This document shows positions 20,345-20,785 of a stretch of 64,000 nt of DNA, piece by piece; the first letter of the stretch is position 1; each line of letters opens with the position of its first letter. The translations under genes and the position numbers were made by a program. The notes beneath the pieces were generated by a model, which saw only the letters and a program-made list of their open reading frames with translations, was not told the origin of the DNA and did no database searches. The stretch is taken from the sequence record NC_070992.1, one strand, 5' to 3'. The DNA comes from Escherichia phage Paul.

Positions 20345-20785
20345 TTACAAACAGATATAGACAGGTATGTCCATCTGATTTAGATATTTAAACATTATAG
20401 GTCTTACCTGAGATTGGTAATCTAGTCCTCCATTGCTACAACCCAGTGGTGTTATGGCTAGAGAGGTGATTCCCTTATCTTTATAGGTAAGTAATAGCTT
20501 TTGTAAGCCTTGCTCTATCCACTCTACCTCAGAACCGTTTCTCCAATGCTTCTTAGTTGGAAAACACAGTCCTAGTCTCCCATCATTCAACCTCTGTAGG
20601 AGAAGTTGTCCGATCTGGAATCCAGAGTCGCAAGCAACCTTATACCTTTCAAAAGCTTCAGGGTATCTTCTTTTATACTCCTTAGCCACCCCTGCACCCA
20701 TTACACCTACTAGGTTTACTGTGCAAGTTACTGTTTGGACGTCCACCGTGAATACATTGGCTTTTCCTTCAAAAACAATAGCCAT
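20345..20785 (-). CDS. macro-domain-like protein (putative ADP-ribose binding/processing)
   Basis: [15 protein letters not shown] glycine-rich motif and [18 protein letters not shown] resemble macro-domain motifs; not verified by search. Confidence 0.45.

Follow-up and report, generated by a model that had tools for sequence, protein, structure and literature searches.

The window analysed here, a stretch of 64,000 nucleotides from Escherichia phage Paul (NC_070992.1), contains a small gene at positions 20345..20785 on the minus strand (146 codons, ATG start) that encodes a macrodomain protein of 146 amino acids. We found that this protein, referred to below as the macro protein, belongs to the clade of DarG, the antitoxin of DarTG2 systems, and that it corresponds to the catalytic half of DarG, the C-terminal domain that binds the toxin DarT being absent. 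Judging from its sequence relationships, we consider it likely to be an orphan antitoxin-like enzyme of the AdfM type, one that would remove ADP-ribose from thymidine in single-stranded DNA (ssDNA) of the phage and would thus counter DarTG2.

Proteins of this type have been studied in two other phages. PhiKZ gp104 (AdfM) frees an oligonucleotide of the ADP-ribose that DarT2 has attached to it and relieves the toxicity of DarT2 in E. coli; PhiKZ depends on it for growth on DarTG2-positive Pseudomonas isolates (PMC13309987). In phage T4 the macrodomain gene tk.4 (adfM) was found, in a transposon screen, to be required on E. coli expressing DarTG2 (HIDEN-SEQ preprint 10.1101/2025.11.20.689424); a macrodomain alone can therefore counter DarTG2 in E. 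coli.

The open reading frame (ORF) in Paul is a genuine coding gene, with a product that ends 2-4 residues past the macrodomain. Its ortholog in the phiEco32 record, phi32_37, has been labelled 'Appr-1-p processing enzyme family' since 2008, and newer PHROG-based annotations label the gene 'phosphatase'. We characterized the gene as a putative AdfM-type gene.

A DarG macrodomain without the DarT-binding domain

An earlier, sequence-only reading of this DNA had described the product as macro-domain-like. Sequence profiles, similarity to proteins of solved structure and an AlphaFold2 (AF2) model of high confidence confirmed this, and no different fold was assigned. The Pfam Macro profile (PF01661) reaches 36.7 bits (E = 4.5e-9) over residues 22-125, where 22 bits is the cut-off. 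The AF2 model, built on 41 homologs, has a mean predicted local distance difference test score (pLDDT) of 96.7 and a predicted template modelling (TM) score (pTM) of 0.90; the three-layer alpha/beta/alpha macro fold is present, as seen in the model and in its Foldseek matches.

Foldseek returned 187 PDB matches at E <= 0.001, and the best 50 of the 187 were all macrodomains or designs made on a macrodomain scaffold. The best match was 5M3E, the Thermus aquaticus DarG macrodomain with ADP-ribose (TM 0.92, root-mean-square deviation 1.5 A). It was followed by 5M3I, 5M31 and 7OMU, all of them DarG macrodomains; the E-value for TARG1 was about six orders of magnitude weaker than those for the DarG structures.

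The same clade was reached by sequence. In a phmmer search against PDB sequences the macro protein matched DarG of Mycobacterium tuberculosis (5M3I, E = 1.7e-26), the Thermosipho DarTG fusion (7OMU, E = 3.5e-25) and T. aquaticus DarG (5M31, E = 1.4e-24). The next class, human TARG1/OARD1, came up only at E = 0.23, and macrodomains beyond DarG and TARG1 were not found by sequence in this search. Among PADLOC profiles DarG (PDLC02990) was matched over positions 6-142 of 329 (148.6 bits, E = 6.9e-44), with no other match at E <= 0.01; the NCBIfam antitoxin_DarG equivalog (NF048014) was matched over positions 6-144 of 338 (E = 9.7e-41).

Two glycine-rich segments, which the sequence-only reading had taken for nucleotide-binding motifs of a macrodomain, were located at residues 23-34 and 111-120. 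They are indeed the ADP-ribose-binding loops of macrodomains, with a similarity far beyond chance. Loop 1 (residues 24-34; 20684..20716, minus strand) begins with the conserved active-site asparagine N24 (codon 20714-20716), and loop 2 of the ADP-ribose pocket (residues 111-121) was placed by alignment at 20423..20455 on the minus strand. The counterpart of the catalytic lysine of DarG is, by alignment, K78 in the motif FPTKKHW (codon 20552..20554, minus strand).

In an alignment of 41 homologs of 37-82% identity the residues N24, V26, G27, V28, M29, G30, G32, A34, K78, G115 and G119 were invariant, and C116 and L121 nearly so. The ADP-ribose-loop signatures read VGVMGAG (residues 26-32) and LGCSNGG (residues 114-120). 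Position 117 of loop 2 is variable, being Ser in Paul, Gly in phiEco32 and Bas90 and Ala in DE15 and PhiKZ. N24 aligns with N22 of T. aquaticus (Taq) DarG and with N23 of PhiKZ AdfM, and K78 aligns with K80 of the former and K78 of the latter. These four are active-site residues of the Thermus and PhiKZ proteins (PMC13309987); the activity of PhiKZ AdfM is lowered by the substitution N23A (PMC13309987), and K80 of Taq DarG has been called critical for catalysis (PMC11543638).

Cellular relatives of the macro protein are, with few exceptions, encoded next to a DarT gene. Scanning prokaryotes with a single genome for each species, we took the best 80 loci (39-52% identity) and, using an iterative DarT profile, found an adjacent DarT-like ORF on the same strand in 74 of them. 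As an independent check, all 74 adjacent ORFs match Pfam PF14487 (ssDNA thymidine ADP-ribosyltransferase DarT). Among the six exceptions, two loci (L039 and L077) are on contigs of <= 3.5 kb, and a third (L040) ends at a contig edge inside the macro ORF. The database homologs P0080 and P0098 (46-47% identity) also adjoin Pfam DarT genes. On a ColE1-type plasmid of Klebsiella quasipneumoniae a DUF4433/DarT gene is followed by a macro gene with a product 45% identical to the Paul protein. On this plasmid, pWP3-W18-CRE-02_7 (8.6 kb), the two genes form a compact operon (L013:884-2357), which encodes a DarT of 264 amino acids and a short DarG of 225 amino acids.

Resemblance to DarT2 or DarT1 was checked on one neighbouring DarT, the Psychrobacter protein encoded beside P0098, which is nearer to the thymidine-specific DarT2 structures 7OMU, 7OMV and 7YK3 than to E. 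coli C7 DarT1. The thymidine-specific DarTG2 class is the one defined by macrodomain antitoxins (PMC11825919, PMC11543638).

Most of the cellular relatives continue past the macrodomain with a tail of ~85, 150-165 or 220-233 amino acids, and a few have almost none; the Paul protein has none. The domain that is missing from it is the C-terminal DarT-binding domain of DarG described in PMC11543638 and PMC11825919. It is the only macrodomain protein within the window, and a DarT profile run against 639 ORF segments of the window gave no match at E <= 10, with 79 control ORFs recovered.

Proposed function and competing explanations

We propose that a phage captured a DarG from a DarTG2 system and that what it now encodes is the catalytic macrodomain only, the part that binds DarT having been lost. 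Upon infection of a DarTG2 host, DarT2 would ADP-ribosylate thymidines of the single-stranded phage DNA and replication would be blocked; thymidine modification and the replication stall are summarised in PMC11825919 and PMC11543638. The macro protein, which would be produced from a middle-class operon together with replication genes, would bind the ADP-ribose moiety by the two glycine-rich loops, and K78 and N24 would hydrolyse the bond between thymine N3 and ribose. Unmodified DNA would be restored, and replication and packaging could proceed. As no DarT-binding domain is present, neutralisation would have to be purely catalytic, as with PhiKZ AdfM; the action would be that of an enzyme, with the toxin not being sequestered. 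We infer both ADP-ribosylated thymidine in ssDNA as the substrate and protection against E. coli DarTG2 from homology.

The sequence-only reading had suggested a role in counter-defence and had named DarTG and Thoeris as the systems to consider. The DarTG part of this suggestion has been strengthened by the membership in the DarG clade, by the 74 of 80 DarT-adjacent relatives and by the homology to AdfM. The Thoeris part found no such backing: similarity to macrodomains other than DarG is much weaker, and no Thoeris component appeared in the best 50 of the 187 Foldseek matches of the macro protein.

The distribution of the gene among phages was followed in ~97 phage records that match the region around it. 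The gene is present at >= 90% protein identity in 39 of these records (~40%). Among the BASEL phages it is present in Bas90 and Bas91 and missing in Bas93. In Bas93 (L007:1100-1210) the macro gene is precisely missing. In Paul its start overlaps the o-spanin stop in TAATG (20783..20787, minus strand; defined by sequence and ORF ends), and the presence/absence cassette has its upstream edge here too; in Bas93 the o-spanin stop shares the TAATG with the ATG of the sigma-factor gene instead, and the junction lies within a GCCAT repeat that the two 'ATGGC' gene starts make up. In Suseptimavirus IME267 (L008:1170-1394) the macro slot is filled by an unrelated ORF of 74 codons, and the SLOG gene is missing too. 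The interval 20326..20787, which separates the o-spanin gene from that of the sigma factor, is a variable accessory site.

Where the gene is present it is well kept. The ratio of nonsynonymous to synonymous substitution rates (dN/dS) of the kuravirus macro orthologs is 0.03-0.04, so that strong purifying selection acts on the protein sequence. A copy 80% identical, labelled hypothetical, was found in the Chaseviridae phage vB_EcoM_DE15, a 54-kb myovirus (L009:4001-4441), in the early region just upstream of the gene for single-stranded DNA-binding protein (SSB). Given that DE15 is unrelated to Paul, this copy points to horizontal exchange between coliphage families. Accessory genes for anti-defence usually present themselves in this way: intact and strongly constrained, yet dispensable and horizontally mobile. 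Accessory presence and absence, low dN/dS and mobility taken together, the macro gene behaves as a maintained anti-defence accessory gene.

Several points weigh against a role in countering DarTG2. About 60% of the relatives manage without the gene. The score of 140 bits for the NCBIfam DarG equivalog does not reach its 250-bit whole-protein cut-off; the cut-off is missed because the C-terminal DarT-binding domain is missing, and strictly speaking the macro protein is therefore no DarG antitoxin. Among 5,426 complete E. coli genomes none matched the macro gene at the DNA level, nor did any match the Klebsiella darTG operon, which served as a probe for DarTG2 in this species; carriage of DarTG2 by the natural hosts of the phage was thus not supported by these DNA-level searches. 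In the searchable literature we found nothing that connects Kuravirus with DarTG, and the BASEL paper does not mention DarT or macrodomains (PMC11990801). Finally, the substrate specificity would be an extrapolation, given 41% identity to PhiKZ AdfM and a T4 AdfM that can barely be aligned (E = 0.001).

Two candidate identities or origins were rejected. DarG proper does not fit the macro protein, which has neither the C-terminal domain nor a DarT partner. Nor is there support for a capture from a DarG of E. coli in recent times, since none of the 5,426 genomes gave a DNA-level match.

With respect to origin, distance analysis placed the Paul protein with DE15 and with metagenomic proteins on ~53 kb contigs, and then with 'short-tail' cellular DarGs. 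PhiKZ AdfM ranked 89th of 99 by distance, most cellular DarGs being closer to the kuravirus protein. In a neighbour-joining tree, which is a sketch without bootstrap support, the nearest cellular group was again the 'short-tail' DarG subtype, including the Klebsiella plasmid protein. We tentatively suggest that the kuravirus macrodomain may have been captured separately from the chimallivirus lineage.

The 'short' subtype, found on the Klebsiella ColE1-type plasmid, in Psychrobacter and in Campylobacter concisus, has a tail of ~85 amino acids, and the DarT upstream of it is often large or fused. One could speculate that the macrodomain of kuraviruses and Chaseviridae is an independent capture of this subtype, with possibly different substrates or with cooperation of the protein of SLOG fold encoded two genes away; we regard this version as doubtful. 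If it were true, the substrate range may differ from that of PhiKZ and T4 AdfM, other DarT sequence motifs or ADP-ribosylated RNA could be covered, and the macro protein might cooperate with the DprA/ShosA-like SLOG protein as an 'orphan-antitoxin' island of the middle operon.

A role as AdfM-type eraser of thymidine modification also has to be compared with that of a general hydrolase of ADP-ribose derivatives, such as ADP-ribose-1''-phosphate, O-acetyl-ADP-ribose or ADP-ribosylated proteins, serving in nucleotide/NAD housekeeping or in clean-up after RNA repair. The labels in GenBank, RefSeq and PHROG ('Appr-1-p processing enzyme / phosphatase') agree with such an enzyme, the macrodomain superfamily does act on such substrates (PMC9503650), and the macro gene sits amid nucleotide-metabolism genes. 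The label, however, is a generic family name of 2008 with no tested function behind it, and by sequence and structure the protein falls in the DarG clade and not among MacroD/YmdB or Poa1p-type enzymes. Protein de-ADP-ribosylation by DarG has not been demonstrated (PMC12421852), and no Tpt1/KptA, RNA ligase or sirtuin that could make the substrates is annotated in the close relative Bas90. We consider a general hydrolase unlikely.

The mark to be erased might, alternatively, be made by the phage itself. Phages such as T4 encode ADP-ribosyltransferases, and the macro protein could then be one half of a phage-internal pair of writer and eraser. In DNA viruses, genes for Macro, SLOG and NADAR domains tend to be found together (PMC9503650). 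Nevertheless, we found no candidate for the writer: no ADP-ribosyltransferase is annotated in the complete Bas90 genome, Pfam shows none in ten large uncharacterised ORFs of the window, and the DarT profile finds nothing in the window ORFs at E = 10, many small ORFs being unannotated. Such a pair thus appears very improbable.

We attach an equally low probability to destruction or sequestration of an ADP-ribose-containing immune signal, for instance a cyclic ADP-ribose (cADPR) isomer or His-ADPR made by a Thoeris-type TIR protein, perhaps jointly with the SLOG protein. A role in processing such signals has been predicted for viral Macro and SLOG domains (PMC9503650), and the gene for the SLOG fold is close by; yet membership in the DarG clade and the DarT-adjacent cellular relatives indicate a DNA-linked substrate, the occurrence of the macro gene is independent of that of the SLOG gene, and the SLOG protein is nearer to DprA and ShosA than to the cADPR-binding SLOG domain of ThsA. 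We know of no anti-Thoeris protein that is a DarG-type macrodomain.

Least credible of all is a dead or merely ADP-ribose-binding remnant, or a piece of DNA kept as promoter carrier for the sigma-factor gene: a sigma70-type promoter for gene 36 has been predicted inside phiEco32 gene 37 (PMC8948821) and many relatives lack the macro gene, but the catalytic and ligand-binding residues are all intact, dN/dS is as low as given above, a simple consensus scan showed no sigma70-like site on the minus strand in 20345..20785 (a weaker site being possible), and phages without the macro gene express the sigma factor regardless.

Genomic surroundings

The 3.2 kb surrounding the macro gene have ~95% nucleotide identity with phiEco32 and its relatives (Kuravirus, Gordonclarkvirinae), and the window is that of a phiEco32-like Kuravirus. 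The genes are arranged in the order gene 40, i-spanin and o-spanin (39/38), macro (37), sigma factor gp36, SLOG-like gp35, deoxynucleoside monophosphate (dNMP)-kinase-like gp34 and exonuclease gp33. The TAATG overlap predicts translational coupling of the o-spanin and macro genes. Between the macro stop and the sigma-factor start there is a spacer of 19 nt (20326..20344, minus strand), where AAGGAAAG is a Shine-Dalgarno-like sequence for the sigma gene. A sigma factor had been named as the adjacent gene by the sequence-only reading; the gene at 19678..20325 (minus strand) is of the phiEco32 gp36 type, with a match to PHROG 1740 at E = 6e-46.

A motif search showed an exact match to the gp36-dependent promoter element, TAATGTATA, at 22144..22152 on the minus strand, ~60 nt upstream of the gene-40 homolog. 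In phiEco32 a gp36-dependent promoter upstream of gene 40 was mapped by experiment, and the block containing the macro gene belongs to the middle class, alongside DNA polymerase and nucleotide-metabolism genes (PMC8948821). The element at 22144..22152 is likely to be a middle promoter for gene 40 and the spanin, macro, sigma and SLOG genes; by analogy with phiEco32, the macro gene of Paul would be expressed with the middle/replication cluster. Further exact copies were found at 12312 (+), 22216 (+) and 28382 (-). With one mismatch allowed there was no enrichment across the window (18 observed versus 20.8 expected), and the gp36 motif is meaningful only as exact intergenic copies. At 21299..21316 on the minus strand, just past the end of the gene-40 homolog and ahead of the spanin and macro genes, there is a strong hairpin, AGCCACCTCCGGGTGGCT, which with the T-run behind it resembles a terminator. 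As it stands between gene 40 and the spanins, expression of the macro and sigma genes from the gene-40 promoter requires read-through.

The ORF at 19289..19681 (minus strand), which the sequence-only reading had called SLOG-like, is the phi32_35 ortholog. On the basis of profiles, AF2 modelling and genomic context we characterized it as a gene for a SLOG/DprA-type Rossmannoid protein of 130 amino acids. Pfam PF10686 (YAcAr/YspA SLOG) stays below threshold on the gp35 ortholog itself; nearly all gp35 homologs at 45-58% identity carry this domain. The AF2 model (pLDDT 95.3) has its best match in ShosA of the Shosta defence system (8ZVA, E = 1e-3, TM 0.64), followed by DprA, the SLOG domain of ThsA and LOG. 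ShosA is the antitoxin-like component of Shosta (8ZVA). The gp35 ortholog could be a second orphan gene for counter-defence, antitoxin-like or nucleotide-processing. A PADLOC scan of the gp35 ortholog gave no match. The database label 'GTP-binding domain' for gp35 looks unfounded, the sole sequence match to a GTPase in PDB being 25 residues long and at chance level.

The SLOG gene is not an obligate partner of the macro gene. Bas93 has kept the former and is missing the latter; in DE15 the macro gene has no annotated SLOG or GTP-binding-domain gene adjacent to it, the neighbours being hypothetical by annotation and not scanned with profiles.

Some further features of the window were recorded. 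The dNMP-kinase-like ORF (DUF3310 domain) at 18765..19298 on the minus strand encodes 177 amino acids from a GTG start, the same as in Bas93; the protein has 297 amino acids in phiEco32 and Bas90, and the long and short forms of the family differ by ~350 nt. Homing-endonuclease genes with HNH and NUMOD4 domains lie at 17364..17765 and 52888..53400, both on the minus strand, and relatives are distinguished by insertions of ~420-540 nt that bring homing endonucleases into the neighbourhood of the dNMP kinase and SLOG genes. This indicates that intron or homing-endonuclease traffic is active in this gene block. Elsewhere, at 39835..48292 (minus strand), there is a cluster of RimK/ATP-grasp-like, glutamine amidotransferase (GFAT-like), amidoligase and COOH-NH2 ligase genes that is kept in Bas90. 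It includes three large ORFs without a Pfam match (44691..45308, 46117..47088 and 47099..48292), and its role in the phage appears uncharacterised.

Significance and comparison with known systems

The mechanism proposed here has its precedent in PhiKZ and T4, and the gene was already annotated as a member of the macro family; what has been sharpened is its assignment as a DarG-type orphan, very probably an AdfM-like enzyme against DarTG2. If the assignment is right, AdfM-type counter-defence would extend from nucleus-forming jumbo phages and T4 to podoviruses of the genus Kuravirus and to myoviruses of the Chaseviridae, phages would have acquired the DarG macrodomain more than once and passed it on to phages unrelated to them, and the gene would merit a name more informative than 'phosphatase' or 'Appr-1-p processing enzyme'. 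Kuraviruses are common, have a broad host range and are considered for therapy. Knowing whether a given isolate carries the cassette would help to forecast its host range on DarTG2-positive strains. In the BASEL study kuraviruses were unusually resistant to the defence systems tested (PMC11990801).

The closest studied counterpart is PhiKZ AdfM, 41% identical to the Paul protein (E = 7e-36, with 138 of the 146 Paul residues aligned). Both are phage-borne stand-alone DarG2-like macrodomains of ~150-160 amino acids with the same active-site Asn and Lys; both match the same region of the DarG profile, and neither has a DarT gene or a DarT-binding domain. An insertion between helix 3 and loop 2 of PhiKZ AdfM is not present in the Paul protein. 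Unlike PhiKZ, phages of the Paul type are 77-kb E. coli podoviruses without a phage nucleus, hence without PicA-dependent import or synergy with a compartment. T4 Tk.4 is remote, the BLASTP match to the Paul protein having E = 0.001 over 32 residues; against the PADLOC DarG profile the Paul protein scores 148.6 bits, PhiKZ AdfM 132.9 and T4 Tk.4 36.

With the DarG structures 5M31, 5M3E, 5M3I and 7OMU (TM 0.89-0.92, 34-38% identity in Foldseek alignments) the Paul protein shares both catalytic residues (K and N) as well as the Gly loops. DarG, however, has ~330-340 amino acids and is encoded in a toxin-antitoxin operon, whereas the Paul protein has 146 and is encoded by a virulent phage with no adjacent DarT. 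The next-best structural class is human TARG1/OARD1 (4J5Q-S), with TM ~0.82 and 17-19% identity in the structural alignment; TARG1 is reported to remove ADP-ribosylation from telomeric DNA (PMC11102865).

The strategy itself is the same as that of AdfN and the other phage NADAR orphan antitoxins against DarTG1, where the phage keeps the eraser domain only (PMC11825919). The folds are unrelated, and the base concerned is guanosine for DarT1 and thymidine for DarT2 (PMC11825919, PMC11543638).

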